Below are positions 6,918 through 35,950 of a stretch of 64,000 nt of DNA, one piece after another; position 1 is the stretch's first letter; each line of letters opens with the position of its first letter. The position numbers and the translations under genes were made by a program. The notes under the pieces are model-generated. The model searched no databases. It was not told where the DNA came from and saw only the letters and a list, made by a program, of their open reading frames with translations. Source of the DNA: Dehalococcoidia bacterium (GTDB taxonomy: Bacteria; Chloroflexota; Dehalococcoidia; Lucifugimonadales; UBA3495); contig DAOUHF010000146.1 of the NCBI GenBank assembly GCA_034428795.1, forward strand, positions 7,197-71,196, in the 5' to 3' direction.

Positions 6918-7300
6918 CAGGGTAGGATGGTTTCAGGGTAACTGCTCCGCAGTAGAACAGCGAACCGGCAACGAAATTGCACTCTCGCCGGATACAGTCT
7001 TCAGAATCTGGAATTTCACAGGGGAAATTCCTGGATCCACCTACGAGGAACGATTGCACAGGGCAGGAAAGCGGGCGAGGTGGCGGCCGGATTCCTGCGG
7101 AGAATATGACAGCGCCATGATATGCTACCAAAAGTCCATTGCCCCATATATCCACAGCACGTTGAGGCAGTGAAGGTAATCAGCGGTAATCAGCGCGGCC
7201 GTCGGCGATGGGACACTCCATCTAGATTAGCCAACATTTGGGTCCACTCATCCGGCCGCACCTGGGCAACCACTTGGCAACTGTCCGAGCAGGAGAGGCA

Positions 7301-7549
7301 ATGTCCATTGAAGAGGAGCTGCTGAAGCGCATCTCCGTTCGTTCGGAGATATTCGGAGGAAAACCCATCATCCGTGATATGCGCATTGCGGTGGAACACG
7401 TTCTGGGAATGCTGGCCTCGGGAGACACCTCCGAAACGATTCTCAGCGAATATGAGTTCCTTGAGGTTGAGGACATCCAGGCATGTCTGCTGTACGCTCA
7501 TCGTTCGCTGGCAGGGGAGCAGGTCCATGAGCGTATGACAGTACGGTAA
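7301..7549 (+). CDS. DUF433 domain protein (antitoxin-like partner of DUF5615)
   Basis: RISVRSEIFGGKPIIRDMRIAVEHVLGMLASGDTSETILSEYEFLEVEDIQACLLYA is the DUF433 signature (GG.P.i.gtRi.v..vl..l..G.s.eeI...yp.l..edi.aal.ya). The ATG at 7301 follows AGGAGAGG. Confidence 0.75.
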   Translation: MSIEEELLKRISVRSEIFGGKPIIRDMRIAVEHVLGMLASGDTSETILSEYEFLEVEDIQACLLYAHRSLAGEQVHERMTVR

Positions 7550-7593
7550 CCGGGAAGAAGTTCCTGCTGGATGTATGCGCGTCATCACGTCGA

Positions 7594-7914
7594 ATGCGCG
7601 CCACGCTCGCCCGCTTGGGACATGACGTATTGTCCGCGGCTGAGTTGGATCCAAAGGCCAGCGATGAAGCCCTGCTCTCAATGGCGCTGTCGGAACAGTG
7701 GGTACTCATTACTGAAGACAAGGACTTCGGCGAGTTGGTGTTTGTACACCGACTGCCGCATCCGTGCATCATCAGGTTTGTCGAAATGAGAGTCGTGGAA
7801 CAGGTTGACGCTATGGAGGAGCTCATTAAGGGTTACGAGGACTCAATGACGGACGGCACCCTCATCGTGGTCACCCGAAGACGGATAAGAATACGCCACG
7901 GGCACCCCGAATAG
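7594..7914 (+). CDS. DUF5615 (Mut7-C/PIN-like) protein, toxin-like partner of DUF433. The N-terminus is apparently truncated.
   Basis: LARLGHDVLSAAELDPKASDEALLSMALSEQWVLITEDKDFGELVF..LPHP matches the DUF5615 family. In-frame homology (KKFLLDVCASS) continues upstream of the first ATG to 7555, but that stretch has no ATG/GTG/TTG. Confidence 0.7.
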   Translation: MRATLARLGHDVLSAAELDPKASDEALLSMALSEQWVLITEDKDFGELVFVHRLPHPCIIRFVEMRVVEQVDAMEELIKGYEDSMTDGTLIVVTRRRIRIRHGHPE

Positions 7915-8057
7915 CGAGATTTCCCACCAGAGGCGGATCTCATCCTGACCGGTATCTCGTATCTGGATGAGCTTAAATGAAACCGCTGGCCAAAGGTGTT
8001 CCGCGACCTCATTACGGACTCAAAAGTCAACTCAGAAATGCCTCTATATCAGGGCAT

Positions 8058-8081
8058 AATTGAAGCTAAATAGCTTCAATT
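8058..8081. promoter_or_regulatory. 24-bp palindrome (11-bp perfect arms, 2-nt centre) immediately upstream of the gyrB -10 box
   Basis: AATTGAAGCTA-AA-TAGCTTCAATT read directly. It sits in a locally AT-rich stretch of an otherwise GC-rich genome. Confidence 0.45.
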
Positions 8082-8082
8082 C

Positions 8083-8091
8083 TGATATAAT
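8083..8091 (+). promoter_or_regulatory. Extended -10 promoter element (TGaTATAAT) for gyrB
   Basis: TGATATAAT at 8083-8091, about 90 nt upstream of the gyrB ATG. No good -35 is present, because the palindrome occupies that position. Confidence 0.4.
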
Positions 8092-8177
8092 CTTTATATC
8101 CAGTACAAAGAATCACACAGTCCCCTTTGTGCCCTTCTTCGGGCCCTTGGCACAGCCGTAACCCATTGGTGATTTGA

Positions 8178-10115
<1,938 letters not shown>

Positions 10116-10208
10116 GTCCCCCTAACCTATAATGCCCCGTATTGCCTTCGACCAGCGGTTGTAACACCAAGCCGCAGTCAGACCAAAAGCAGACCAGAGG
10201 TAGCCCGC

Positions 10209-10475
10209 TTGCCAGCCAGAAAATCGTTCCGCCAATCGGTAAAACGCAACCAACGGAACCGTAGCGCCCGTACGGAGACAAGGACCATAATCGCCAGGGC
10301 GGTGCGGTCGATGGATTCCGGGGACCTCTCGGAGGCCGAAGTGGCGGTGGATCGCGCCGTGAGCACCATGGACCGCGCGGTACAGAAAGGGATCATGCAC
10401 AAGAACAACGTGGCCCGGCGCAAGTCCCGCCTCACTACCCGCTTCAACGACATGGTTCGTGGCGAAGGCGCCTAG
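10209..10475 (+). CDS. rpsT: 30S ribosomal protein S20
   Basis: PARKSFRQSVKRNQRNRSARTETRT...KGIMHKNNVARRKSRL is the S20 pattern. TTG start. Confidence 0.9.
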   Translation: MPARKSFRQSVKRNQRNRSARTETRTIIARAVRSMDSGDLSEAEVAVDRAVSTMDRAVQKGIMHKNNVARRKSRLTTRFNDMVRGEGA

Positions 10476-10515
10476 CGTCGCCGCGGCCCCAAAGATCGAC
10501 CGGTTCCCGGCGTTT

Positions 10516-10547
10516 CCCGCTTCAGTCACGGAGCGGGGCTTTTTTTG
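10516..10547 (+). terminator. Rho-independent terminator after rpsT
   Basis: Stem CCCGCT (10516-10521) / AGCGGG (10532-10537) followed by GCTTTTTTT. Confidence 0.6.
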
Positions 10548-10585
10548 GTTCCGAACCGCAGCACAGCGCGGGTGACACCTCAGCG

Positions 10586-10614
10586 TTGACAGATCCAATG
10601 GGCTTTGTTAACTT
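10586..10614 (+). promoter_or_regulatory. Candidate lexA promoter
   Basis: TTGACA at 10586-10591, a 17-nt spacer, then TAACTT at 10609-10614 (weak -10). Confidence 0.3.
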
Positions 10615-10620
10615 CCTGCT

Positions 10621-10636
10621 AGAACATCCGTGTTAT
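10621..10636. promoter_or_regulatory. Candidate LexA operator (imperfect SOS-box-like palindrome)
   Basis: AGAACATCCGTGTTAT contains the perfect AACA-N4-TGTT palindrome and a GAAC half-site. It matches the Gram-positive GAAC-N4-GTTC consensus only partially. It lies just downstream of the putative -10 and upstream of the lexA start. Confidence 0.25.
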
Positions 10637-10647
10637 GTAAGGTGAAT

Positions 10648-11301
10648 ATGGTTACCAGGAAGCGAATGCCACAGCGCCGGCAACAGATTCTTGAGTTCAT
10701 ACAGGGGTTTATCTCCGATAACGGGATCCCGCCAACGGTCCGGGACATCCAGAAGGCCTGCGACATCAGTTCGACATCGGTGGTGGACTATAACCTGCAC
10801 AAGCTGCGGGAGGCCGGATACCTCAACCGCCGGCCGGATGTCGCCCGGGGTATCGAGCTTTTGGACAACGAAGGCCAACCCGTGTCCAATGCTCCCCGGG
10901 TACAGATCGTCGGGGCTATCGCCGCCGGTCAACCGCTGCCCGTTTTCAGCACCGAGGGGGTCCAGTCCAGCGAAGAGTTCGACGCTGTTGAAATTTCTCC
11001 GGACCTGCCCCGCCGTCACGGCAAGCTCTTCGGCCTGGCGGTGCGGGGGACTTCCATGATCGACGCGTTGATCGACGACGGAGACGTGGTGATCGTAAAA
11101 CCCGCCCATGAGGCCTCGAATGGCGACATGGTTGTCGCCTGGTTGAAGCAGGAAGAGGAAGCGACCCTGAAGAGGTTTTACCTGGAGGGGGACCTGGTGC
11201 GTCTCCAGCCAGCCAACAGCCAGATGACGGCCATCTACAGTCCGGCGGATAACGTGGAGGTCCGGGGCAAGGTCGTTTCGGTGATGCGAAAGTTTGGCTG
11301 A
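10648..11301 (+). CDS. lexA: LexA repressor
   Basis: Winged-helix N-terminus RRQQILEFIQGFISDNGIPPTVRDIQKAC. Cleavage-site region VGAIAAGQP. S24 peptidase core VRGTSMIDALIDDGDVVIVKP...MVVAWL...ATLKRF. The start is ambiguous (GTG 10630, ATG 10648 or ATG 10666). Confidence 0.9.
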   Translation: MVTRKRMPQRRQQILEFIQGFISDNGIPPTVRDIQKACDISSTSVVDYNLHKLREAGYLNRRPDVARGIELLDNEGQPVSNAPRVQIVGAIAAGQPLPVFSTEGVQSSEEFDAVEISPDLPRRHGKLFGLAVRGTSMIDALIDDGDVVIVKPAHEASNGDMVVAWLKQEEEATLKRFYLEGDLVRLQPANSQMTAIYSPADNVEVRGKVVSVMRKFG

Positions 11302-11337
11302 CCCGGCACCCCTGCCGCCATGTCCGGCACCCCTTCT

Positions 11338-11380
11338 GTCATTCCGGCCCCCCCCGTCATTCCGGCGAAAGCCGGAATCC
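11338..11380. repeat. Short GC hairpin repeat (GTCATTCCGGC duplicated; TCCGGC-GAAA-GCCGGA hairpin)
   Basis: GTCATTCCGGC occurs at 11338 and 11356. The second copy continues into the hairpin TCCGGCGAAAGCCGGA. A related unit lies inverted at 11540-11561. Confidence 0.5.
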
Positions 11381-11539
11381 ACGCCGCCTCCTCGGTGTCT
11401 GTATGTCCGCGAGTTGGCGTAAGAGTGTGCTGCACGGCGGGATACGTTTGATGGACTGGCGTGAATGGGCTTCGGCTGCCTCAGGAGTTGCCCGTAGGCT
11501 CGAGGTTAACCTGCTGTCCCCGAGGGTTGGGGTTCCGTA

Positions 11540-11561
11540 AATGCCGGCGTTGGCCGGAAAG
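11540..11561. repeat. Related hairpin unit in inverted orientation
   Basis: AATGCCGGCGTTGGCCGGAAAG. Its reverse complement, CTTTCCGGCCAACGCCGGCATT, has the same TCCGGC..GCCGG architecture as 11356-11380. Confidence 0.4.
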
Positions 11562-11629
11562 ACCGTTGCGATGCCCAAACTCCGGTATGACTCACGTTTC
11601 CAAAGGCCCAGGTGCTGGCGCCCCCGCGT

Positions 11630-12124
11630 TCAACGCCGGGCGTTGCTCAACGCGATGTAGGTCGCGACGGAAAAGGGAACCATGTAGCTAAGGGGAATTT
11701 TCCAAAAGAGCTCGTTCACCCAGTTGCCGCCGACGATGACGTTTCCTTGGTTGAGGGCGGTAATGATGGTGCCCACAACCACGGCGGTCAAAACCGAGCG
11801 GCGCAACATCGGCCAGTGCCTGCAGGCGCACCGGGCGCATTTCATCACCGAGCCGCCGGTGCGGTTGTCGAAGGCAAAAGCCCACCGGTGCCGGGCTCTG
11901 CGGCCGCAGCGCACACAGGTAGCCGCCTCTACTGCTGGTGTCGGTGTTGGCGCCGGTGTTTGTGACGGGGTGGCTGCCTGAATTGGGGCCAATCGTTCCT
12001 CGGGAGCTTGAACGCTCCTTGAAATGGAAACCGGGCCACACAAGACCTGATCGATAAAGTTCGGACGGGTGGATGGCCCGGCCTTCCGGGAACGGATTTT
12101 AAATGAACCAATAGTGCCTGTCAC
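11630..12124 (-). CDS. NrtS-like small membrane protein with a Cys-rich, Pro/Thr-rich N-terminal extension
   Basis: The C-terminal 65 aa RRSVLTAVVVGTIITALNQGNVIVGG...WKIPLSYMVPFSVATYIALSNAR resemble the NrtS nitrate/nitrite-transporter family. Upstream lies a CVRCGRR...CARCACRH cluster. The start is uncertain. Confidence 0.45.
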   Translation of the reverse strand: MTGTIGSFKIRSRKAGPSTRPNFIDQVLCGPVSISRSVQAPEERLAPIQAATPSQTPAPTPTPAVEAATCVRCGRRARHRWAFAFDNRTGGSVMKCARCACRHWPMLRRSVLTAVVVGTIITALNQGNVIVGGNWVNELFWKIPLSYMVPFSVATYIALSNARR

Positions 12125-12260
12125 TCCGAAATGTGGCCCTGAACTGGCACCCTGAACCGTTGGCCCTCGATTTCTTGTTGGCGGGCCCCCGGGATCTTAT
12201 AATTGAATGTGCAGTCCTTGGTCCGGTGGTATAGGGACCGACGTTTAATGGAGCCGACCA

Positions 12261-12944
12261 ATGTACGATTTCCACACCCACACGTTCCTGAGCGACGGTG
12301 TTCTCTCACCTATAGAGTTAATTCGGCGGGCGTTGATCCGGGGGTATAGGGCCATGGCCATTACCGATCATGTCGGATTGGGCAACGTCGAGTACGTACT
12401 GAAGACCCTGATCACAGACTGTGCTCAAGCCACCAAGAGGTGGGACATCCTCGTCCTTCCCGGCGTCGAGGTCACCCACGTGCCAAAGGAAGACATCGAC
12501 CTTGTGGCCCGCACCGCCAAGGAGATGGGGGCCAAGATGGTGGCAGTGCACGGGGAGACGGTGGTGGAGCCCGTGGAACCAGGCACCAACGAGGCTGCCA
12601 TACGGTCATCCTTCGTCGATATACTGGCCCATCCGGGCCTGATTTCCTTGGAAGAGGCGCGGTTGGCTGCGGAGAGAGGAGTGTACCTGGAGGTTTCGGC
12701 CCGCCGTAGCCACGCATACGCCAATGGGCACGTGGCCAAGATGGCGAAACAGGCCGGAGCATCCTTGGTGTTGGACTCCGACGCCCACGAACCCGAAGAC
12801 CTGCTGACTCCAGAGTTCAGGCTGAGAGTCGCAAAAGGCGCGGGCCTCGATGAAGATGAGGTCCACGCCATGCTGGAAACGAACCCGCGGAACTTGCTGG
12901 GGAAGTTGGGTTTCGGGCCGGATCACGCCCCCGCGGCAGGCTGA
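12261..12944 (+). CDS. PHP-domain phosphoesterase (histidinol-phosphatase-like)
   Basis: MYDFHTHTFLSDGVLSPIELI...AITDHV...VAVHGE...LDSDAHEP are PHP metal-binding His/Asp motifs. Confidence 0.75.
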   Translation: MYDFHTHTFLSDGVLSPIELIRRALIRGYRAMAITDHVGLGNVEYVLKTLITDCAQATKRWDILVLPGVEVTHVPKEDIDLVARTAKEMGAKMVAVHGETVVEPVEPGTNEAAIRSSFVDILAHPGLISLEEARLAAERGVYLEVSARRSHAYANGHVAKMAKQAGASLVLDSDAHEPEDLLTPEFRLRVAKGAGLDEDEVHAMLETNPRNLLGKLGFGPDHAPAAG

Positions 12945-12968
12945 CCGGCCTCTGCGTTCCGCCTTCTT

Positions 12969-13109
12969 CTAAGATTTACCGATCCGGAATACCTTGGTCC
13001 CGCATTGAGGACAGACTCCTTGCGTCGCCGGCCGGCCGTTCTTGAGTGTTACCTGCTCCGGGTTGGAAATCTCGCGTTTTCCCCTGCACTTGAAGCAATA
13101 CGCCTCCAT
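12969..13109 (-). CDS. Small zinc-ribbon protein, DUF5679-like (46 aa; absent from the ORF track because it is under 60 aa)
   Basis: Minus-strand ATG at 13109 preceded by GAGGTG. Translation: MEAYCFKCRGKREISNPEQVTLKNGRPATQGVCPQCGTKVFRIGKS, with two CxxC pairs and the KNGRPA..G.C..CGTKvfRIg pattern of DUF5679. TAG stop at 12971-12969. Confidence 0.7.
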   Translation of the reverse strand: MEAYCFKCRGKREISNPEQVTLKNGRPATQGVCPQCGTKVFRIGKS

Positions 13110-13245
13110 TGTGTGTGCACCTCGCCTTCCCTATTTGGTTGTAACGCCCGGTTTCCGGGAGACTGAAAACGGCCGCCGAGTGGGCTGCGTTCCGGCCTTC
13201 CATCTCGTTCGGGGAGAGGCCGGAACCACCGGACATAACGTGGAT
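13110..13245 (-). promoter_or_regulatory. About 130-nt structured 5' leader of the DUF5679-like gene (candidate cis-regulatory RNA)
   Basis: Perfect 10-bp stem GTTCCGGCCT/AGGCCGGAAC (plus coordinates 13189-13198 and 13217-13226) and a second hairpin CCCGG-AAA-CCGGG. I could not match it to a known riboswitch consensus. Confidence 0.35.
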
Positions 13246-13251
13246 TTCCCA

Positions 13252-13279
13252 ACTATAGCGGCCAGTCTCATAATGTCAA
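13252..13279 (-). promoter_or_regulatory. Candidate sigma70-type promoter for the small zinc-ribbon gene
   Basis: On the minus strand: TTGACA (13279-13274), a 16-nt spacer, then TATAGT (13257-13252). Confidence 0.4.
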
Positions 13280-13358
13280 GGACTATTAACGAGCGGTGAT
13301 ACCGGGAACCAGTGGGGCCTGGGGCGCCGGCCCCTTCGGGTACGACGCAGGACCGTCC

Positions 13359-14342
13359 CTAGCAGACTTCCACCGGGGCCAGCGGCGACGGGGAATCCAA
13401 TTGAAAGACCTTGACCGGCCGCCACGAGTTGGCCGGCCGCTCGTAGCGCACCAAAGCGAGGAACCGGCCCTCACTGTCGTAGGCCCGGAATTGCTCCAAA
13501 TATCCCGCGTCCAAGACCGGGCGGCCCAGGGTGACCGGCTGGCCGTGCTTCAAGAACTCTTCGGCGTGCCGCCCCACGGTAACGCTCTTGAGGCGCCGTA
13601 AGACCCAGTCGACAGGCATCAAATGCTCTTTCCACCCTTCCGTCTCGGCGTCCGCATCCGCCGCCAGTTGCTCCAGGGTAATTCCATCAGCCGCCTGGAA
13701 TCCGCCGCAACTCTGGCGTTCCAGGTCGGCAACGTGGCCGCCGCATCCCAATGAGTCCCCAAGGTCGTGGGCCAAAGAGCGCATGTAAACGCCGCGGCCG
13801 CATTCAACGTCAAGTGTCAGTGTCGGAAGTTCCAGGCTTACGATGCGGGCCGAGTATATCTCCACCGGTCGAGGCGCCCGCTCGACTTCGATGCCCTCCC
13901 GGGCCAGCTTGTAAAGCCGCTGTCCGCCCACCTTGACGGCGCTATACATGGGAGGAATCTGCTGGATTTCGCCGATGAACGGTTGTAACGCCGCGTCGAT
14001 GTCGTCGATGGTGACGTGGCCGGGGTCGCCGGTCTTCACCACTTCTCCTTCAGCGTCGTAGGTAGTGGTGGTGACACCGAGGGTGACGTCCATCATGTAC
14101 CGTTTGTTGCCGCCGACGACGTAGTCCATCAGACGGGTGGCCTGCCCGAAACACACCGGCAGCACGCCCCGGGCCAACGGGTCCATGGTGCCGCCGTGCC
14201 CCACCTTCTGACGCTGGCCTGTGATGCGCTTCACTTGGCGGAGGGCTTCCATGGAGGTGATGCCCGGGGGTTTGTAAAGGTTTACGAAACCGTTGTTGAC
14301 AGGACGTTGGGAGCGCCGTCCGTCGAGCTTGTTATTGGGCAT
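13359..14342 (-). CDS. truB: tRNA pseudouridine(55) synthase
   Basis: GFVNLYKPPGITSMEALRQVKRI...KVGHGGTMDPLARGVLPVCFGQATRL, with the catalytic Asp motif. Confidence 0.93.
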   Translation of the reverse strand: MPNNKLDGRRSQRPVNNGFVNLYKPPGITSMEALRQVKRITGQRQKVGHGGTMDPLARGVLPVCFGQATRLMDYVVGGNKRYMMDVTLGVTTTTYDAEGEVVKTGDPGHVTIDDIDAALQPFIGEIQQIPPMYSAVKVGGQRLYKLAREGIEVERAPRPVEIYSARIVSLELPTLTLDVECGRGVYMRSLAHDLGDSLGCGGHVADLERQSCGGFQAADGITLEQLAADADAETEGWKEHLMPVDWVLRRLKSVTVGRHAEEFLKHGQPVTLGRPVLDAGYLEQFRAYDSEGRFLALVRYERPANSWRPVKVFQLDSPSPLAPVEVC

Positions 14343-14760: not shown

Positions 14761-14839
14761 GTGGACTTCCCCTCATCGAATATCGGGGAGCGGACAAGGG
14801 TGCGGGCCCCCCAAGACGAATGCGGCCGGTTGAGGCCGG

Positions 14840-16681
14840 CTACCGTCGTCCTCGTTCCTGCCGGTAAATCTCCAACACGTCCCCTTGTTGAAAGGCGTTG
14901 AATCCTTGGAGCACGACGCCGCACTCGGTGCCAGTGGTCATTTCGTTTACTTCGTCCCGGAAATGACGCAGGCTGGTGACCGTAGTGTCGGCGACGGTCA
15001 CGCCGCCTCTGACGACACGGGCTGAGCCGTTGCGTACCACCCGGCCGTCCGACACGCGGCAACCGGCGATTTGCGCGCCACGCCGGCCTTCGAAGACCTC
15101 CCGGATTTCGGCCCGGCCCACCACCACTTCGGTGTAGACTGGCTCCAACATTCCGTGAAGGGCCAATTCGATATCGTCGATGAGATGGTAAATGATGCCG
15201 TAGTGGCGTATCTCCACGCCCATGCGGTCGGCCAAGCGTTCCGCGCTGGGCTCGGCGCCGGTGGCGAAGCAGATGACGATGGCCTCGGAGGCGCTGGCCA
15301 AGAGGACGTCGGATTCGGTGACGGCCCCGCTGCCGGTGTGCAGGACACGGACCTTGGCATCTTCGTCGACCAGTCGTTCCAACGCCTGTCTCACCGCTTC
15401 GACGCTGCCTTGAACGTCGGCTTTCAGCACCAGGTTCAATTCCTTGACGTTGTCGACGTCGACGCGGTTGACCACCTCTTCCAGGGTCAACGCCCTCGTC
15501 TGGCCCGGGGTGGTCCAGTGGGCGCGGTCCCGGCTGCCGGCAATAGACCGTGCTTCCCGGTCGTTGGCCGCTACGGTCAATTGGTCCCCGGCCTCGGGAA
15601 TCGCCCCGAATCCCAGCACCTCCACCGGACTGCCGGGAGTCGCCCGGTCCACCGGCCGGCCTTGGTCGTCCGTCATGGCGCGGACTCGTCCCGAGGTCGC
15701 GCCGGCGGCGATGAAGTCGCCGATCTTCAGCGTGCCGTCGGCGACCAGGATAGTGGCGCTGGGGCCGCGCTTCCGGTCAAGCTTGGCTTCGATAACCACT
15801 CCGGCGGCCGGTTTGTCCGGGTTGGCCTTTAGCTCCGAAATCTCGGCGACCAGCAGGATGTTTTCCAGCAGGTTGTCTATTCCGTTACCGGTGGTGGCCG
15901 AAACCTCGGCGGATACGACATCGCCGCCCCAGTCTTCCACCAGTAATTCCTGCTCGCTGAGCTGCCGTTTCACCCGCTCTGGGTCGGCTCCAGGCAGGTC
16001 CATTTTGTTGATGGCGACAACTATAGGCACCTTCGCGGCCTTGGCGTGGTTGATCGCCTCCACCGTCTGGGGCATGATGCCGTCGTCCGCCGCCACCACC
16101 AGAACTGCGATGTCGGTCACCTTGGCTCCCCGAGCCCGTATGCCGGTAAACGCGGCGTGACCGGGGGTGTCCAGGAAAGTAATGGACTGGCCCTGTACGT
16201 CAACCTGGTAGGCGCCGATGTGCTGGGTAATGCCCCCCAGTTCGCGGTCCGCAACCCGCGATTTCCGGATGTAGTCCAGCAAGGAGGTCTTGCCGTGGTC
16301 GACGTGACCCAGAACGGTGACCACCGGGGGCCGGGAACTCAGATCAGCGTCGTCGCTCTTGCCGCCGGCGGCTGCGGCCCGCCCCGCGGCGGCGGCGGGT
16401 TCTTGGGCCATCGTGGTCCGGACGCCGAAGGCCGTCGTGACCAGTGTGGCCACCTGGTAGTCGATCAGCTGGTTCATCGAGGCCATGATGCCATTGCGCA
16501 TGAGCTGCTTGATGACATCGATGGCCGATTGGTCCAAAACTTCCGCCAAGTATTGGACGGTCATGGTATCCGGCAATACCAGAGGGCGAGGCGGTCCGCC
16601 TCGTTTATCTCCGGCCGCCCGACGGGGCCTGGCGGGTCTAGCTCTTTCGTCAACTGGCGTTGACCGTGTTTCGGAAGTCAT
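14840..16681 (-). CDS. infB: Translation initiation factor IF-2
   Basis: G-domain [29 protein letters not shown], plus the conserved C-terminal domains. Synteny with nusA-ylxR. Confidence 0.95.
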
Positions 16682-20849: not shown

Positions 20850-21079
20850 GGAAACCGTGGTTCCGGCCTACCCCCTATGTGGGGGGACAGGTACAGGAGT
20901 AAATTGGCGTTTTGATGGCTGGAATCTTCAACTTTCGGAGTCTATATCCGGCCCAATCCGTTGTCAACCGCACTAACGCGCAACGGCGTGGGAACCGTTC
21001 AGACCAACCTACGGCAGTCGCCAATCCCCGGCAGTTGCCAATCTGGCAATCGATCGAAGGGGGCGTCCTGTCGTCGTCG

Positions 21080-21517
21080 CTACGCGGTCTGTGCCGCCAG
21101 GCTCAACTGGCGCTCGGCCAGGTCGGCTACGCTGATGTTGGTGAGGAGGTCTCGGATGGAGTCTTCCACCAACTGCCACACTTCCTGCTGGGCGCAGGAG
21201 TCTGAAAAGACACAATCATCGGGGTTGGCCAAGCAGTCCAAGGGCGAGTTACCGGAATCCAGCCTTGTCATGACCATGCTCAGATTGATCTCTTTCGGGT
21301 CGATAGCCAAGGCATGGCCGCCTTGGGGGCCCCGCCGGCTGCTGATGAACCCGAGCTTGTTGAGGGACGCCATCAGTTGGTCCAGGTAGGCTTCGGGTAT
21401 CCCCTGCCTCGTGGCGATTTGCCCGGTCTGAACGTAACCATCCCCGTAGTTCAGGGCCAGCTCAACCAGAGCGCGTACCCCGTAATCTACTTTCATGGGG
21501 ATTTTCATCAGACGCAC
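21080..21517 (-). CDS. Rrf2-family transcriptional regulator (CymR/IscR-like)
   Basis: KVDYGVRALVELALNYGDGYVQTGQIATRQGIPEAYLDQLMASLNKLGFISSRRGPQGGHAL. Three-Cys region CLANPDDCVFSDSC. The start is ambiguous among M1, M4 and M8. Confidence 0.85.
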   Translation of the reverse strand: MRLMKIPMKVDYGVRALVELALNYGDGYVQTGQIATRQGIPEAYLDQLMASLNKLGFISSRRGPQGGHALAIDPKEINLSMVMTRLDSGNSPLDCLANPDDCVFSDSCAQQEVWQLVEDSIRDLLTNISVADLAERQLSLAAQTA

Positions 21518-21690: not shown

Positions 21691-21770
21691 AAATAGGTAC
21701 GCAAGAATCAAGTCGAAGTTGCCAAAGGTTGTCAGACGGGAGGGTCCGATACGCGCGAGGGTCCGATACG

Positions 21771-22153: not shown

Positions 22154-23098
22154 ATGGGCATGGATAAAACCAGGGCCACCGCTGGTCCCGCCGCCGTGGC
22201 CATCTGGATAAGGGCGCTGTTCAAGACCCTCCGGCCCCTGCAGTGGACCAAGAACGGCCTCGTGTTCCTGCCCTTCGTCTTCGCCGTCAATGTCGCTTGG
22301 TCGGCGGACTCCCTCAGCCTCGTGCCCGATCTCTTGGTGCGGTTGGTGATACTGTTTGTGGCGTTTTGCGCCATGTCCAGCGGCGTCTATCTGCTGAACG
22401 ACCTGATGGACCGGGAGGCCGACCGGAAACACGCGGTGAAACGGCGCCGGCCCCTCGCCTCCGGTCAGGTGAGCGTACCGGCTGCGGTAGCCCTGATGAT
22501 CGTCCTGGAAGCTGCCGGCCTGGCCGTAGTCACGCTGCTGGACCCGCTGCTGGGGCTGGTCGGCCTGGTATATCTGGCAATCAACGTGGGCTACTCCCTG
22601 GGGGCCAAGCGGGTGGTGCTGCTTGACGTCTTTGCCGTCGCCAGCGGCTATGTCATCCGGGCCGCTGCGGGGGCGCTGGCCATCGACGTGGCGCCATCGC
22701 CGTGGCTATACGTAACCACCGGCGCCGGCGCCCTGCTGATCGTCTTGGGGCGGCGGTACGCCGAGGTCCGGCTGGCTGGCGAGAACGCCGCGGAACAGCG
22801 GCCGGTGCTGCGGGCCTACTCCGGGGCCTTCATCAATCAGTTACTGACTGTCTCGGCAACGGCGGCCTGGCTCAGCTATACTTTATACACAATAGAGGCG
22901 GAAAATCTTCCTGACAACGGCGCCATGCTCTTTACCTTGCCCTTCGTGGTGTTCGGGCTGTTCCGGTACCTCTTTCTCTTGAACCACAGTCAGAGGGCCG
23001 AGGCGCCAGAGCAGTTGATCATCCGGGACCTGCCCCTAACGCTGTCTATCATCGGTTGGATTGCGGTCTCCGCCGCCGTTTTGCTGATCAACAGCTGA
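22154..23098 (+). CDS. UbiA-family prenyltransferase, decaprenyl-phosphate phosphoribosyltransferase-like
   Basis: LRPLQWTKNGLVFLPFVFA and NDLMDREADRKHAVKRRRPLASGQVS (the NDxxDxxxD motif and the typical DPPR-synthase context). Multiple TM segments. Start at ATG 22154 or 22160. Confidence 0.7.
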   Translation: MGMDKTRATAGPAAVAIWIRALFKTLRPLQWTKNGLVFLPFVFAVNVAWSADSLSLVPDLLVRLVILFVAFCAMSSGVYLLNDLMDREADRKHAVKRRRPLASGQVSVPAAVALMIVLEAAGLAVVTLLDPLLGLVGLVYLAINVGYSLGAKRVVLLDVFAVASGYVIRAAAGALAIDVAPSPWLYVTTGAGALLIVLGRRYAEVRLAGENAAEQRPVLRAYSGAFINQLLTVSATAAWLSYTLYTIEAENLPDNGAMLFTLPFVVFGLFRYLFLLNHSQRAEAPEQLIIRDLPLTLSIIGWIAVSAAVLLINS

Positions 23099-23132: not shown

Positions 23133-24278
23133 ATGCGGAGCCCCGAAGAAAACCCTGCCATGACCGTCCCGGCGGGGACGGCCCCCGCCGTTTCCCGCAC
23201 CGGCCCGCCGGTGGTGGCGGTGGTTGCTACCCGGCCGGAGACGGTGTTGGAGGACATGGGCCGGGCCATGGAGTTGGCGGGGATTACCGAACACCTCTCC
23301 CCGGAGGCGACTACGCTCCTCAAGGTCAACATCTCCTGGCAACACTGGTACCCCGGCTGCTCGACTACCCCTTGGCAGATCGAAGGGGTAGCCGGCGGGC
23401 TGCGGTCCCGGGGTTTCAAAGACCTGGTGGCCGCCCACAACGGCACCGTGGTGGTCGACTCCTACGAAGGAGAGGCCAACAACAGGCACAAGGCCGCCCA
23501 AGACCGCATGGACCTTCCCTCGGTACACTTGGACAGCCTTCCCAACCGCTGGGTGGACTACAAGCCCAAAGCCGAAATGATGGTCTTGGACGAAATCTTC
23601 CCTGAGGGAATCCAGGTCCCCGAGTCGTTCGCCGGCACGAACATCGTGCACCTGCCGACGATGAAGACCCACGTTTTCACCACTATGACCGGCGCGATGA
23701 AGAATGCCTTCGGCGGTCTCCTCCACCGCAAGCGTCACTGGACTCATTCGGTGATTCACGAAACCCTGGTAGACCTGCTGGCCATACAGCAAGAGATTCA
23801 CGCTGGAATATTCGCCGTGATGGACGGCACCTTCGCCGGCGATGGTCCGGGTCCCCGGGCGATGCGCTGGCACATCAAAGACCGGATTCTGGCCAGCGCC
23901 GACCAAGTCGCTATTGACGCCGTGGCGGCGAAGATGATGGGGTTCGACCCCATGGACCTGAAGTTCATCCGGCTGGCCCACGAGCGGGGACTGGGCTGCG
24001 GCGACGTTAGTAAGATCGAGGTGGCGGGGGAGGATATCAGCGAAGTAAACTGGAAATTCTCCGGCGTCGAGAACACCTTTGCCAGCCGCGGGCAGAAGCT
24101 GATCTACTGGGGGCCGTTAAAGCCCATGGAAAAAATGCTGCTCCGGAGCCCCCTTGTCGGGTGGGCTTTCCTCGCCTCCAACCTTTACCACAACGGGTAC
24201 TGGCTCAAGACCAAAGGCAAACGCCGCATTGAAGCCGCCCTGAAAACCGAATGGGGACGGCTTTTCCAGTCGTATTAG
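23133..24278 (+). CDS. DUF362 domain protein
   Basis: LKVNISW...PGCSTTPWQIEGV, TNIVHLPTMKTHVFTTMTGAMKNAFGGL and FAVMDGTFAGDGPGP match the DUF362 pattern as I recall it. Confidence 0.7.
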   Translation: MRSPEENPAMTVPAGTAPAVSRTGPPVVAVVATRPETVLEDMGRAMELAGITEHLSPEATTLLKVNISWQHWYPGCSTTPWQIEGVAGGLRSRGFKDLVAAHNGTVVVDSYEGEANNRHKAAQDRMDLPSVHLDSLPNRWVDYKPKAEMMVLDEIFPEGIQVPESFAGTNIVHLPTMKTHVFTTMTGAMKNAFGGLLHRKRHWTHSVIHETLVDLLAIQQEIHAGIFAVMDGTFAGDGPGPRAMRWHIKDRILASADQVAIDAVAAKMMGFDPMDLKFIRLAHERGLGCGDVSKIEVAGEDISEVNWKFSGVENTFASRGQKLIYWGPLKPMEKMLLRSPLVGWAFLASNLYHNGYWLKTKGKRRIEAALKTEWGRLFQSY

Positions 24279-24298: not shown

Positions 24299-25582
24299 AT
24301 GCCAATTTCCGGCTTGAGAATCACCAACGCCGGCCCGTTTGACGACATCACGTTCGAGTTCGACAAGCAGGTGAATGTCTTTGTTGGCCCGAACAATTCA
24401 GGCAAGTCGACGACGCTGCTGGTACTCGCGGAAATTGCGGTCTTTCCCGTCTGGTTCCCTGAGAAACTCCTCAAGGGCGCCGAGAGCCAATGGCACGTAA
24501 CTCTCATGGACAGCCAGCAGAAATGGCAATCCGAGGGTGTGATTCCCATTGACCTAAGCTCGAATCAAGGCGCGATGGATCTGCTAAGAAAAGTCGGCTT
24601 TACGACCTTCATTCCTGCACTTCGGAGAAGTACTGACTACCGGTCCAAAGGCCCGGCGATTCTTGCCGAACAGCAGGAATTGCATTTCGGAGACCCAGAA
24701 CTGCGAAAACGACAGAACCTTATCGCAACAGACGCTGAACTCGTGAGCGACGAGTCGGTTATTCGTAAGATGATCGATCTGGACTACACGGCCTACCGCC
24801 TGAATCAGCCGCACGTACGCCAGGTCATTGACAAGGTCGCCGGTGTAGCGTCCGAGATCACGGAAGGGTTCCCCATCGAGTTCCTGGGAATCGGCCAAGA
24901 CGAGCGAGGACTCTTCCCGGAATTTCGCACCCCGGACGGTGACCTTCCTTTCAACGTGCTAAGCCAAGGAACTCAATCGATCATCCAATGGCTATCCCAC
25001 TTCCTATTCGGCTACGCTCAATACTATGATTATCCGCAAGGCCTGGTGGAAAAACCTGCCATCCTCATAATCGATGAAATCGACGCCCACCTGCACCCGT
25101 CCTGGCAGAGGCGGATCATCCCCGCCCTGACCGGCAATTTCCCCAACCTGCAAATCTTCTGCTCGACACACTCGCCGTTGATGCTGGCGGGACTGGCCGA
25201 GGGCCAGGTGCAGTTGCTCAGCCGAGACTTGGGCGGGAACGTGACGGTTTCTCGGAACGAGACAGACATGATAGGGTGGTCAGCCGAAGAGATATTGAGT
25301 CACGTTCAAGGTGTTCGGAATCCCACGGATCTGGCAGCGTCGATAGACTTAGACCGGTTGGGGGAGTTGATTTCGAAGACGACCCTAACGGATGAGGAAA
25401 CTGCGGAATTGGAGGAACTCCGGCATCGAGTAGGACAGGCAGTGTCGGCCGGCCCAGCCGCGGCCCAGGTTGAATTCCTCTTCAAACAGGTCAAACAAAT
25501 CTACTCAAGGCCGAAATCCGATTCGGAGCTTCCGGCAAGAACACGGCCGAGGGTAAGGAGAAGGGACAGCGAGCCTTCGTGA
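24299..25582 (+). CDS. ABC/SMC-type AAA ATPase (AAA_15/21-like), PtuA-like
   Basis: Walker A VGPNNSGKST, signature-like LSQGTQS, Walker B ILIIDEIDAHLHP and H-loop CSTHSP. The locus is low in GC. The ATG at 24299 lies just after the DUF362 stop. Confidence 0.75.
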   Translation: MPISGLRITNAGPFDDITFEFDKQVNVFVGPNNSGKSTTLLVLAEIAVFPVWFPEKLLKGAESQWHVTLMDSQQKWQSEGVIPIDLSSNQGAMDLLRKVGFTTFIPALRRSTDYRSKGPAILAEQQELHFGDPELRKRQNLIATDAELVSDESVIRKMIDLDYTAYRLNQPHVRQVIDKVAGVASEITEGFPIEFLGIGQDERGLFPEFRTPDGDLPFNVLSQGTQSIIQWLSHFLFGYAQYYDYPQGLVEKPAILIIDEIDAHLHPSWQRRIIPALTGNFPNLQIFCSTHSPLMLAGLAEGQVQLLSRDLGGNVTVSRNETDMIGWSAEEILSHVQGVRNPTDLAASIDLDRLGELISKTTLTDEETAELEELRHRVGQAVSAGPAAAQVEFLFKQVKQIYSRPKSDSELPARTRPRVRRRDSEPS

Positions 25583-25585
25583 TCG

Positions 25586-26221
25586 ATGCACTGGGTTAAT
25601 CGAGGCGTTGAACCGGCTCGTGTAGCAGCCATACGCTTGCAGTTCACCCAGAGGTGGATAGACCATTTTCAGGGAACCAGGGTCAGGCCAACGGACGCCC
25701 GGTGGCGGGGATTTCACGATGAATTGAGCGAGGTATTTTCTGGGATTTGCGCTTATTGCGAAGAGGAAACCAGAGGAGAAATAGATCACTTCAGGCCGGT
25801 TAGCAGGTTTCCAAGACTGGTATATGAGTGGTCGAATTGGGTTTTTGCTTGTAATCGTATGAAATCAAACCAATGGCCGCCGGACGGATACGTCAATCCG
25901 TGCGCGGAGGACGAACCCGACCGGCCGGAACGCTACTTTGCTCTTGATACGGCATCCGGAATGTTAATCCCAAGGACGGGTATTCCGGTTGACCACCGGC
26001 AGAGAGCTCTCCGAATGATAAATGATCTTGATCTCAATGCCAGATATCACCTCACGAGACGCACACGCTGGCTGAGATCAATTGGCGTCCTATTCGAAAA
26101 CCAAGCTGAAAACTCTGAGGCTGGCTCGCAATTTCTGGATGACGCGGTAGACCGGGGCTCCGCTTTATCCAGCATTGCCCGCACGTTCCTGGAAGAACGT
26201 GGTTTCACAATCGACGACTGA
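25586..26221 (+). CDS. HNH-like nuclease-domain protein (TIGR02646/PtuB-like)
   Basis: CAYCEEETRGEIDHFRPVSRFPRLVYEWSNWVFACNRMKSNQWP follows the C.YCE....h.eHf.P......W.N....C pattern. It starts 3 nt after the ATPase stop. Confidence 0.6.
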   Translation: MHWVNRGVEPARVAAIRLQFTQRWIDHFQGTRVRPTDARWRGFHDELSEVFSGICAYCEEETRGEIDHFRPVSRFPRLVYEWSNWVFACNRMKSNQWPPDGYVNPCAEDEPDRPERYFALDTASGMLIPRTGIPVDHRQRALRMINDLDLNARYHLTRRTRWLRSIGVLFENQAENSEAGSQFLDDAVDRGSALSSIARTFLEERGFTIDD

Positions 26222-26285: not shown

Positions 26286-27371
26286 ATGGACATTGCAATC
26301 ATCGGGCTGCCGCAGAGCGGCAAGACTACCTTGTTCAACGCGCTGACTGCGGGGCACTCGGCTACCACCGGCGGCGGGGCCGGGCCTTTGAACGTTGGCG
26401 TCGTGAAAGTGATAGACCCCAGGCTGGCCACTCTTGGGCAGATGTACATGCCCAAGAAGATAGTCCATGCCGAAATCAAGTTTTGGGACTTGCCACTGGC
26501 CGGCGGGGACTCCATTAACCAGTTGTTGAGCGGCCGGCAGCGAAATCTGCTTCAAGCGGCCGACGCGATATTGCTCGTCGTCCGCGCCTTCGACGATCCG
26601 GCCTCGCCCCATCCGATGGGCAGCGTGGACCCGGCCCGCGACCTCGCCGCGATGCTGGGAGAGCTGACGCTGGCCGACCTGGAATCCTTGGAGAGGGCCG
26701 AAGAGCGGTTGGCCAGCAACTTTAATAAATCGAAACCCGACGAGCGCCCCGCTCTCGTGGCCCAGCTCGAGGCCGTGCGCAAGGTGAAGGCAGCCATGGA
26801 GGCTGGCGTTCCCTTACGTCGGCAGGCGCTGACCCCTTCGGAATCGGCGGCGCTCTCGGATTTCCAGCTTCTGACCGGCAAACCGGTCATTGTGGCATTC
26901 AACACCGGGGAGTCGGACGCCGCTCCGACTCTGGACTGCCTGGGCCTCGAGATGGAATCGATCGCCGGCCTCGGCGAAGTAGACCTGTCCGCCAAACTGG
27001 AGGAAGATCTGGCGCTCATGCCGGAGGCCGAGGCCGACGAGTTCCGGACGGCCTTGGGACTGGGTGAACCGGCCATCGAGAGCGTGAAGCGGGTCTGTTA
27101 CGGCACGGTCGGACTGGTCTCTTTCCTCACCGTCGGCGAGGACGAGGTCAGGGCTTGGCCGGTCCCGGACGGGATACCGGCCCAAGACGCGGCCGGAACG
27201 ATTCATACGGACTTTTCCCGTGGGTTCATCCGCGCCGAGGTCATCCGCTACGACGACCTGGTGCGTTGCGGCAGTATCGCCCAAGGCCGCAAAGAGGGCG
27301 TGCTGCGCTCTGAAGGTAAGACCTACGCGGTGAAGGACGGCGACGTCATCAACTTTCTGATTAACGTTTGA
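26286..27371 (+). CDS. ychF: Ribosome-binding ATPase YchF
   Basis: MDIAIIGLPQSGKTTLFNALT (P-loop) and the C-terminal TGS-like domain HTDFSRGFIRAEVIRYDDL...KDGDVINF. Confidence 0.92.
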   Translation: MDIAIIGLPQSGKTTLFNALTAGHSATTGGGAGPLNVGVVKVIDPRLATLGQMYMPKKIVHAEIKFWDLPLAGGDSINQLLSGRQRNLLQAADAILLVVRAFDDPASPHPMGSVDPARDLAAMLGELTLADLESLERAEERLASNFNKSKPDERPALVAQLEAVRKVKAAMEAGVPLRRQALTPSESAALSDFQLLTGKPVIVAFNTGESDAAPTLDCLGLEMESIAGLGEVDLSAKLEEDLALMPEAEADEFRTALGLGEPAIESVKRVCYGTVGLVSFLTVGEDEVRAWPVPDGIPAQDAAGTIHTDFSRGFIRAEVIRYDDLVRCGSIAQGRKEGVLRSEGKTYAVKDGDVINFLINV

Positions 27372-35828: not shown

Positions 35829-35872
35829 GCCTGACCGTCGACCGGCCCCAGGTTGGCGCTTATAGCCTGTTT

Positions 35873-35950
35873 CCGCCAAGCCTGCGCTACCGGTTACCGC
35901 CAAGCCTGCGCCACCGGTTACCGCCAAGCCTGCGCCACCGGTTACCGCCA
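35873..35950. repeat. 24-bp tandem repeat, 3.25 copies
   Basis: CCGCCAAGCCTGCGC(T/C)ACCGGTTA three times, then CCGCCA. It ends directly at the TTGTATAATG of the polA promoter. Confidence 0.9.

Follow-up and report, generated by a model that had tools for sequence, protein, structure and literature searches.

We analysed a 64,000-nucleotide (nt) stretch of contig DAOUHF010000146.1 (the window; all coordinates are window positions unless another locus, denoted L and a number, is named), in which two adjacent, co-oriented genes at 24299–26221, ptuA and ptuB, encode an ATP-binding cassette (ABC)-type ATPase and an HNH nuclease partner. We read these two genes as a stand-alone (type I) Septu anti-phage operon, with a probability of about 85%; the identity of the genes and the architecture of the operon were established in this analysis. 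The pair had been picked out from the letters of the DNA alone (hereafter the original prediction), as a low-GC module of an ATPase and an HNH-like protein that resembles Septu and is inserted between housekeeping genes. Its features are:

24299..25582, plus strand: ptuA, stand-alone Septu ABC-type ATPase, 427 amino acids (aa) (open reading frame (ORF); PADLOC PtuA1 PDLC00304, 4.9e-42; Pfam AAA_21 and AAA_15; PDB 8ee4; Foldseek)
24386..24412, plus strand: Walker A motif, GPNNSGKST (translation; G30, P31, N32, N33, G35 and K36 invariant in 40 homologues)
24959..24979, plus strand: ABC signature motif, LSQGTQS (translation; S222-S227 invariant in the 40-homologue conservation check)
25061..25099, plus strand: Walker B and D-loop region, ILIIDEIDAHLHP (translation; D259, I261, D262, L265, H266 and P267 invariant)
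25163..25177, plus strand: H-loop, STHSP (translation; T290, H291, S292 and P293 invariant)
25331..25579, plus strand: C-terminal helical extension of PtuA, presumed PtuB-binding region (predicted helices 345–359, 365–382 and 388–403; contains the nonsense site 25394 described below)
25586..26221, plus strand: ptuB, HNH nuclease partner, 211 aa (PADLOC PtuB1 PDLC00348, 4.8e-22; TIGR02646, 47.6 bits; PDB and fold matches)
25748..25864, plus strand: HNH core of PtuB, C55 to K93, CAYCEEETRGEIDHFRPVSRFPRLVYEWSNWVFACNRMK (C55xxC58, catalytic H68, N84, single C89, N90 and K93; H68 aligns with H57 of Eco7 PtuB)
26033..26218, plus strand: C-terminal helical domain of PtuB, presumed PtuA-binding region (profile positions 119–209 align with residues 136–230 of 8ee7_C, 3.8e-07; predicted local distance difference test score (pLDDT) of the model 72–90)

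The ptuA frame, taken from the ORF list and its translation, runs from the ATG at 24299 to the TGA at 25580–25582. An alternative start at 24251 would give a longer ORF overlapping the upstream gene; the start at 24299 is backed by the database gene call of a near-identical strain (equivalent position, 427 aa), and the alignment of solved PtuA to the window protein begins at residue 3. The ptuB frame extends from the ATG at 25586 to the TGA at 26219–26221, leaving a gap of 3 nt (TCG) behind the ptuA stop, and a like arrangement of the two genes recurs in ~33 related loci. The original prediction had described both the ATPase motif set and a second gene starting 3 nt after the first and carrying an HNH motif, and in both respects it was accurate: all four ATPase motifs were located in the translation of the first gene, and the HNH motif in that of the second. 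PtuB has H68, N84, N90 and K93, each of them conserved at 90% or more across the family alignment, and its HNH active-site residues are complete. The three C-terminal helices of PtuA were predicted at low to moderate pLDDT in an AlphaFold2 (AF2) model.

Profile searches assigned both proteins to Septu families. Among the PADLOC models, PtuA1 was the best match for the first gene, followed by more than 20 other PtuA models, and PtuB1 was the best for the second, followed by ~20 further PtuB models, while AriA and other ABC-ATPase defence models scored ~20 orders of magnitude worse than the PtuA models. Pfam AAA_21 (85 bits) and AAA_15 (68.8 bits) both passed their cut-offs on PtuA, as opposed to the RecF, SMC, Rad50 and transporter models of NCBIfam, which matched it at the P-loop only. 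Solved PtuA and PtuB chains were also the best matches by sequence and by fold. In a sequence search of the PDB, stand-alone E. coli PtuA came out best for PtuA (8ee4, 4.6e-19) and retron I-A PtuB for PtuB (9l7p, 4.5e-09, or 1.5e-14 using the family profile). When the AF2 model of PtuA (pLDDT 72) was submitted to Foldseek, all of the top 50 matches were PtuA chains, headed by 8eea_D of the E. coli Septu complex (4.7e-19); with the PtuB model, the 10 best were likewise all PtuB chains but weak (template modelling (TM) scores of 0.31–0.42). The proposed resemblance to Septu is thus borne out, and so is the placement of the second protein among TIGR02646-type HNH proteins, in that profile searches put it in the PtuB nuclease family, though with a TIGR02646 score below the curated cut-off (see below). 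A literature search for Septu in SAR202 or Chloroflexota returned a single match, which was false ('septum').

Akin to the stand-alone E. coli Septu (PDB 8EE4, 8EE7, 8EEA and 8SUX; Li et al. 2024, via PMC12819146 and PMC12640716) and to Septu Ec-B88 (PMC13096335), the locus is an operon of two genes, ptuA and ptuB, that lacks a reverse transcriptase. PtuA agrees in size (~430–465 aa), in its Walker A, signature, Walker B and H-loop motifs and in having a C-terminal extension of helices, and it finds its best match there by both sequence and fold; PtuB combines an N-terminal HNH with a C-terminal helical domain, the latter aligning with 8ee7_C. Unlike in the E. coli systems, window PtuA is ~16–18% identical to its counterparts in fold alignments, the HNH half of PtuB cannot be aligned by sequence and lies nearer to the TIGR02646/retron-type HNH, and one Cys of the second CxxC of PtuB is missing; moreover, the host here is a member of the Dehalococcoidia (Chloroflexota) and not a proteobacterium or a Bacillus. 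With the PtuAB of type I-A retrons (Eco7/Ec78 and Eco4/Ec83; PDB 9L7P, 9KJX, 9NNB, 9VH1 and 9E8Z) the window pair shares an alignable HNH core, CAYCE...(I/V)(E/D)HFRP...W.N...C..K, and with Eco7 PtuB in particular the equivalent catalytic His (H57 in Eco7, H68 in the window) and a single Cys in the stretch that reads SCGDSRK in Eco7 and ACNRMK in the window. It departs from the retrons in that the locus holds no reverse transcriptase, no non-coding RNA (ncRNA) and no multicopy single-stranded DNA (msDNA), PtuA is without the ~120-aa retron-specific insertions, the equivalog cut-offs of NCBIfam NF041760 and NF041761 are not reached, and no Cys of the window protein corresponds to C90, the fourth zinc ligand in Eco7, with which D100 is aligned instead.

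Flank-based retrieval placed the window in a SAR202-like lineage of the Dehalococcoidia (Chloroflexota) that is known from metagenome-assembled genomes. The pair is flanked by two conserved genes, and the site downstream of the first of them, DUF362, was surveyed in 80 related Dehalococcoidia species genomes, whose DUF362 orthologues are 73–97% identical; it corresponds to loci L004–L083, ~20–100 nt past the DUF362 orthologue (locus coordinates ~9100–11400). The flanking genes and the states of the site are:

23133..24278, plus strand: upstream flank, conserved DUF362 gene, which anchors the hotspot (Pfam PF04015 on a 97%-identical orthologue; stop 20 nt before the ptuA start)
26286..27371, plus strand: downstream flank, ychF-type GTPase gene (Pfam YchF-GTPase_C on the orthologue; start 64 nt past the ptuB stop)
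28 of 80 genomes: site empty, with a DUF362-to-YchF spacer of 21–227 nt
~33 of 80 genomes: PtuA-PtuB pair at or just past DUF362
19 of 80 genomes: site rearranged beside housekeeping genes, or contig too short

The 33 occupied genomes comprise 27 found via BLAST, four more divergent ones (three of these confirmed by PADLOC, L078 among them), one cut by the contig end and one with an unrelated ORF after DUF362. In the sister species L001 (same contig as L004; flanking proteins 96–97% identical), a Septu pair sits at the equivalent position (8001–9953), and in the next-closest genome, L005 (DUF362 86% identical), YchF follows 102 nt after DUF362 with no pair between. Three further PtuA homologues picked from a protein search were all found in the order UbiA-DUF362-PtuA-PtuB-YchF (3/3). 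Because the site is empty in 28 of the 80 related genomes, the pair does not belong to the universal core; it is an accessory element. The site is shared by at least two deep clades of PtuA with a mutual identity of ~30%, and between hosts whose DUF362 is 92–95% identical the identity of PtuA spans 32% to 75%; even so, PtuA distances correlate with those of DUF362 (Mantel r = 0.51, p = 0.0005). In loci with other genes behind DUF362, these are housekeeping genes brought there by rearrangement (LarC/LarE-like, gyrB, ThiF and others) and no other defence systems, and PADLOC found no match for the extra ORF in L010.

Duplicated and eroded forms were also seen at the hotspot. L078 carries two complete tandem Septu pairs after DUF362 (9159–13533; 435 + 265 aa and 457 + 244 aa), with all four proteins confirmed by PADLOC. 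In L014 the PtuB gene (10466–10858) yields a 130-aa product without the C-terminal domain, and in L010 (11993–12634) tblastn similarity extends over the full length of PtuB with a longest ORF of 116 aa.

No tRNA and no Rfam family was found in searches of the 64-kb window, no integrase-like neighbour was seen at the pair, direct or inverted repeats flanking it were limited to short chance-level pairs, and no promoter-like or terminator-like site bounds it, the counts being at or below shuffle expectation; on the tRNA, Rfam, repeat and boundary-site results, a recent integrative element was rejected. Among IMG/VR viral contigs, a scan turned up no close relatives of PtuA. Since mobile-element signatures are lacking and relatives very often carry Septu at this position, we interpret the site as a Septu hotspot that is old and extends across the lineage, at which the pair has persisted by vertical descent, been lost repeatedly and had its alleles replaced, and not as the product of a recent insertion. 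The accessory status of the pair and the hotspot as such were shown in this analysis; of the original wording, 'inserted between housekeeping genes', the word 'inserted' holds in the accessory sense alone.

Chromosomal defence hotspots consist of conserved core-gene flanks around variable defence cargo, as in Pseudomonas, E. coli and Vibrio. The DUF362 site resembles them in its conserved flanks (UbiA-DUF362 and YchF), its presence/absence polymorphism, the high divergence of its cargo between close hosts and the low G+C content of that cargo at third codon positions (GC3). It differs from them in that the cargo is almost always Septu (sometimes two in tandem), with no mix of systems, and in that no integrase, tRNA or repeat borders were seen.

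The composition of the pair is unlike that of its surroundings, as had been claimed. Its GC content is 0.544, compared to a mean of 0.613 (standard deviation 0.020; z = -3.4), the lowest of 1,242 same-size segments across the 64 kb, with 0.24% of such segments as low as the pair region or lower; the counts made by hand in the original prediction, of 29 G+C in 24541–24600 and 43 G+C in 22501–22560, are exact. GC3 is 0.66 in ptuA and 0.53 in ptuB, compared to 0.71–0.82 in nine neighbouring genes, and the same holds in all 29 of the 29 occupied loci examined, where the two Septu genes (0.47–0.73) lie below DUF362 and YchF (0.65–0.91). The second-lowest GC region of the window is a stretch of ~1.2 kb with few ORFs at 6920–8180 (GC 0.55), located between a 1750-aa ORF on the minus strand (1665–6917), which resembles a multidomain glycosyltransferase/kinase/methyltransferase, and gyrB (8181–10115).

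The original prediction had further remarked that the usual second Cys pair of the HNH region is missing after W.NWVFAC, and this is correct. DNA alignment with L001 and L002 revealed a 9-nt in-frame deletion (TGTCATGGA) that strips Cys-His-Gly from the second CxxC of the PtuB zinc knuckle, at the following position:

25847..25852, plus strand: deletion junction GCT/TGT (ancestral GCT TGT CAT GGA TGT, A-C-H-G-C)

The sister species reads GCT TGT CAT GGA TGT AAT where the window reads GCT TGT AAT, such that the loss lies between the two TGT codons. The deletion is common to all three strains of the species (the window, L084 and L088) and is therefore not an assembly error. Among 47 database PtuB homologues, the motif W-S-N-W-V-F-A-C-x-x-C-N-x-x-K is kept in all other full-length sequences, 43 in number; the remaining four are the species' own deletion allele (P0001), a gene call that is too short, a fragment with a frameshift and one sequence whose motif was not resolved by the scan; the deletion itself occurs only in P0001. 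All hotspot PtuBs with a readable motif retain the three-residue spacing, including the second PtuB of L078, in which Phe replaces the first Cys of the second CxxC. Judged from these alignments, the atypical HNH, for which a divergent or degenerate variant had been suggested, reflects a 9-nt deletion, specific to this species, in a PtuB that is canonical in other respects, and does not represent a divergent subfamily. When CHG was restored in silico, the Pfam HNH score rose from 19.3 bits (model positions 1–38 of 47) to 31.3 bits (1–47, full length), so the deletion accounts for the sub-threshold Pfam score; the TIGR02646 score of the restored protein was still under its cut-off, which the intact PtuB of the sister species clears (57.2 bits). 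When JGI metagenome contigs were scanned for exact patterns of either allele, deleted or intact, there was no match. The public call for the sister-species PtuB (P0011; L001 9309–9953) starts at the internal Met of MKSN and hides the intact HNH motif; a truncated or pseudogenised PtuB of 120 aa was rejected there as a gene-call artefact, the full 214-aa ORF being open in L001.

The CxxC...CxxC four-Cys knuckle is a trait of this PtuB subfamily and no formal criterion for Septu, and the catalytic H68, N84 and N90 are retained in the window together with all other conserved PtuB columns; in Eco7 PtuB, the H57A substitution abolishes defence (PMC12673091). In the profile alignment, C78 of Eco7 is matched with the first Cys of the second CxxC, and C90 with window D100. 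The Eco7 stretch SCGDSRK, whose window counterpart is ACNRMK, has a single Cys, yet the protein is active; by analogy with Eco7, a single Cys here would be compatible with activity when another ligand compensates. Window PtuB has no obvious fourth zinc ligand, and since three of the four canonical ligands remain, its predicted nuclease activity is uncertain and may be weakened. The AF2 model of PtuB, with pLDDT <50 at residues 51–89, an alignment of 26 sequences and no intact control, was uninformative as a guide to zinc geometry.

A further difference from the sister species lies in the ATPase:

24431..24703, plus strand: hypervariable, recombined segment of PtuA, aa 45–135 (comparison with sister species L001)

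Within this segment, identity to L001 drops to 46% (aa) and 56% (nt), with synonymous divergence (dS) of 2.48 and nonsynonymous divergence (dN) of 0.48, as compared to 95–98% (aa) and 95–96% (nt), dS of 0.10–0.13 and dN of 0.02 in the remainder of PtuA. Because saturated synonymous divergence lies within a tract bounded by near-identical sequence, the segment has been replaced by recombination relative to the sister species, and not altered by point mutation in place. No donor closer than 55% was found among the 120 listed homologues. Columns 61–100 and 121–140 are the most variable (highest entropy) in the PtuA family, and in the AF2 model the segment lies on the ATPase domain as a beta-hairpin, a helix and a disordered loop. 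We infer that diversifying pressure acts on this surface, whether it serves in sensing or is attacked by phage inhibitors, and it may be the specificity-determining surface of PtuA.

Several other identities of the pair can be weighed against stand-alone Septu. One is a different defence system with an ABC ATPase (PARIS AriA/AriB, Gabija or the OLD family), or else an AAA plus HNH pair associated with restriction, to which point PADLOC matches to AriA models (3e-23 and 6e-20) and of PtuB to mREase_IV (4e-07), weak matches to TIGR04435 (restriction-associated AAA) and MADS3, and PDB sequence matches to AriA (2.8e-05) and an OLD-family protein (0.003). However, PtuA models are ahead by ~20 orders of magnitude (5e-42 compared to 3e-23 for AriA), and the partner, an HNH protein whose C-terminal domain is of the PtuB type, is neither a TOPRIM AriB nor a GajB helicase nor a fused TOPRIM domain, making such a system very unlikely. 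The effector module of a type I-A retron (the Ec78/Eco7 or Ec83/Eco4 form of Septu), acting under a reverse transcriptase and msDNA, is brought to mind by the best NCBIfam names, which are the retron Ec78 PtuA and PtuB equivalogs, and by the retron I-A chains that head the PDB matches of PtuB. Yet the equivalog scores fall far short (115.4 compared to 500 bits for PtuA and 44.4 compared to 150 bits for PtuB), DUF362 at 20 nt upstream and YchF at 64 nt downstream leave no room for a reverse transcriptase or ncRNA, and no Rfam match exists in the 64-kb window; in addition, PtuA is 427 aa long, compared to ~550 aa for retron PtuA with its helical-flap insertion and N-terminal extension (PMC12819146), and its best match by sequence and fold is the stand-alone E. 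coli Septu PtuA. Flanks, equivalog scores, PtuA length and the Rfam result effectively refute a retron, whose probability we put at close to negligible. A housekeeping DNA-repair or transport ABC protein (RecF, SMC, Rad50 or an ABC transporter) next to an unrelated nuclease has virtually no probability left: the N-terminal P-loop region of PtuA does give weak matches to RecF, RecN, Rad50, SMC and ABC transporter models, but these span only ~40 residues at E-values of 6e-4 or worse, far under the cut-offs, and the pair is absent from 28 of the 80 related genomes, has atypical GC3 and shows a dN/dS ratio above that of neighbouring genes. Profile scores and the presence/absence pattern refute it.

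A number of observations do weigh against the reading of the pair as a stand-alone Septu anti-phage operon. At the level of families, Pfam HNH on PtuB reaches 19.3 bits, under the gathering score of 21.4, TIGR02646 reaches 47.6 bits, narrowly under the cut-off of 52.15, and the AF2 model of PtuB (pLDDT 65.5 overall and <50 over HNH core residues 51–89) is weak evidence, built on a shallow 26-sequence alignment. At the level of function, three points apply: (i) window PtuB retains C55, C58 and C89 as its only zinc ligands, three of the canonical four, which leaves the four-Cys knuckle incomplete, and Eco7 PtuB binds zinc via C43, C46, C78 and C90 and loses defence upon quadruple Cys-to-Ala substitution (PMC12673091); (ii) in L088 (ENA ERZ25071132, 99.9% nt identity), a GAG to TAG change at PtuA codon 366 (window 25394; L088 5096–5098) leaves a 365-aa PtuA in which two of the three C-terminal helices, the part that binds PtuB in solved complexes, are lost; (iii) what is said of substrate, trigger and stoichiometry is carried over from E. 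coli proteins with ~15–25% identity. It may be that Septu is already non-functional here, the deletion having destabilised the zinc knuckle and disabled the nuclease, with the operon drifting toward loss as in the empty-site relatives. The loss of a Cys from a CxxC kept by every other full-length homologue, the jump of the Pfam HNH score from 19.3 to 31.3 bits once CHG is restored and the low AF2 confidence over the HNH core all speak for such an outcome, as do the L088 stop codon, the within-species single nucleotide polymorphisms (SNPs) of the two Septu genes (two synonymous, three missense and one nonsense) and the erosion of PtuB elsewhere at the hotspot (the 130-aa product of L014 and the 116-aa ORF of L010). 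Set against this, neither ORF is shortened in the window or in L084, which like L088 is another strain of the species and carries the operon at 99.8–99.9% nt identity, and all other conserved and catalytic PtuB residues are retained. Single-Cys motifs also exist in intact systems, namely active Eco7 PtuB (SCGDSRK, with its zinc site at C43, C46, C78 and C90) and the second PtuB of L078, where F stands for the first Cys. The dN/dS ratio between window and sister species, at 0.34 for each Septu gene compared to 0.09–0.21 in the flanks, is clearly below 1, and the SNP counts are not clearly different from those in the flanks (six synonymous, five nonsynonymous), the numbers being too small to decide on relaxed selection within the species. 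We regard loss of function as a serious possibility, if not the one we favour: the system may be decaying in this species.

On the reading as stand-alone Septu, the mode of action can be sketched by analogy with characterised systems. PtuA would oligomerise and hold the PtuB HNH nuclease, with the three-helix C-terminal extension of PtuA contacting the C-terminal helical domain of PtuB, such that PtuA would both scaffold and gate its partner; the nuclease would be restrained, with ATP as inhibitor, until a phage cue releases PtuB, and the released effector nuclease would cut nucleic acid and thereby halt phage replication. For the stand-alone PtuAB of E. coli, two reports describe a 6:2 PtuA:PtuB complex with DNA nicking that is reduced by ATP, and a response to phage tail-fibre proteins (PMC12819146, PMC12640716). 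PtuA's C-terminal extension and PtuB's C-terminal domain together form a nine-helix bundle (PMC12819146). E. coli Septu cleaves tRNA-Tyr in vivo, with Walker and HNH residues required (PMC13096335); DNA nicking is its in vitro activity, and phage resistance that needs the ATPase and HNH residues has been shown for E. coli systems (PMC13096335, PMC12673091). For the window pair, we infer complex formation, control by ATP, substrate, trigger and co-transcription. Because there is no promoter-like or terminator-like site of its own and ptuA starts 20 nt past the DUF362 stop, the pair is probably read through from the UbiA-DUF362 genes, and because ptuB starts 3 nt after the ptuA stop, its translation is probably coupled to that of ptuA.

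A more far-reaching proposal, which we hold to be unlikely, joins the hotspot, the recombined segment and the deletion: the DUF362 site would be a Septu-dedicated diversification locus, at which whole ptuAB alleles and a ~270-nt cassette (PtuA 45–135) are exchanged between lineages to retarget phage sensing, and the three-Cys PtuB would still be active. If this were true, PtuA 45–135 would be the specificity determinant of Septu, and the 'collapsed zinc knuckle' with its three Cys would be an HNH variant minimised in nature, which has converged on the single-Cys PtuB of retrons.

Additional strain-variable features were recorded elsewhere in the window. A 24-nt tandem repeat (GTTACCGCCAAGCCTGCGCCACCG) at 35869–35950 has 3.4 copies in the window and many more in strain L084, where it runs to the end of the fetched locus; its copy number thus varies between strains. 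On either side of an Rrf2-family gene (21080–21517), at ~21013–21052 and 21737–21770, the intergenic DNA also varies between strains, L084 having ~185 nt and ~600 nt of extra DNA at the two points and L088 ~150 nt at the first; the junction segments in the window are 34–40 nt long and appear duplicated at the junctions. In the sister species L001, ~5 kb downstream of its Septu pair, lie a PIN/PhdYeFM toxin-antitoxin pair (15626–16298) and a metallo-beta-lactamase-fold gene with a Pfam Anti-Pycsar_Apyc1 match (14800–15612), and a DDE transposase fragment follows these genes.

The system belongs to the already known kind of Septu, and tools such as PADLOC would make the call routinely. The curated cut-offs of Pfam HNH and TIGR02646 miss the window PtuB. 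We see the Septu-specific hotspot, the recombined segment of PtuA and the natural deletion in the zinc knuckle as useful leads; none of them is a surprise. The recombined segment is a testable candidate for the phage-recognising part of Septu, and the deletion allele together with the intact allele of the sister species provides a natural pair with which to test the need for the PtuB zinc knuckle. At one and the same site, occupied, empty, duplicated and eroded states offer a clean natural series, and Septu emerges as a long-term, locus-bound part of the accessory genome of the SAR202-like Dehalococcoidia, an abundant and hard-to-culture lineage of ocean and soil.

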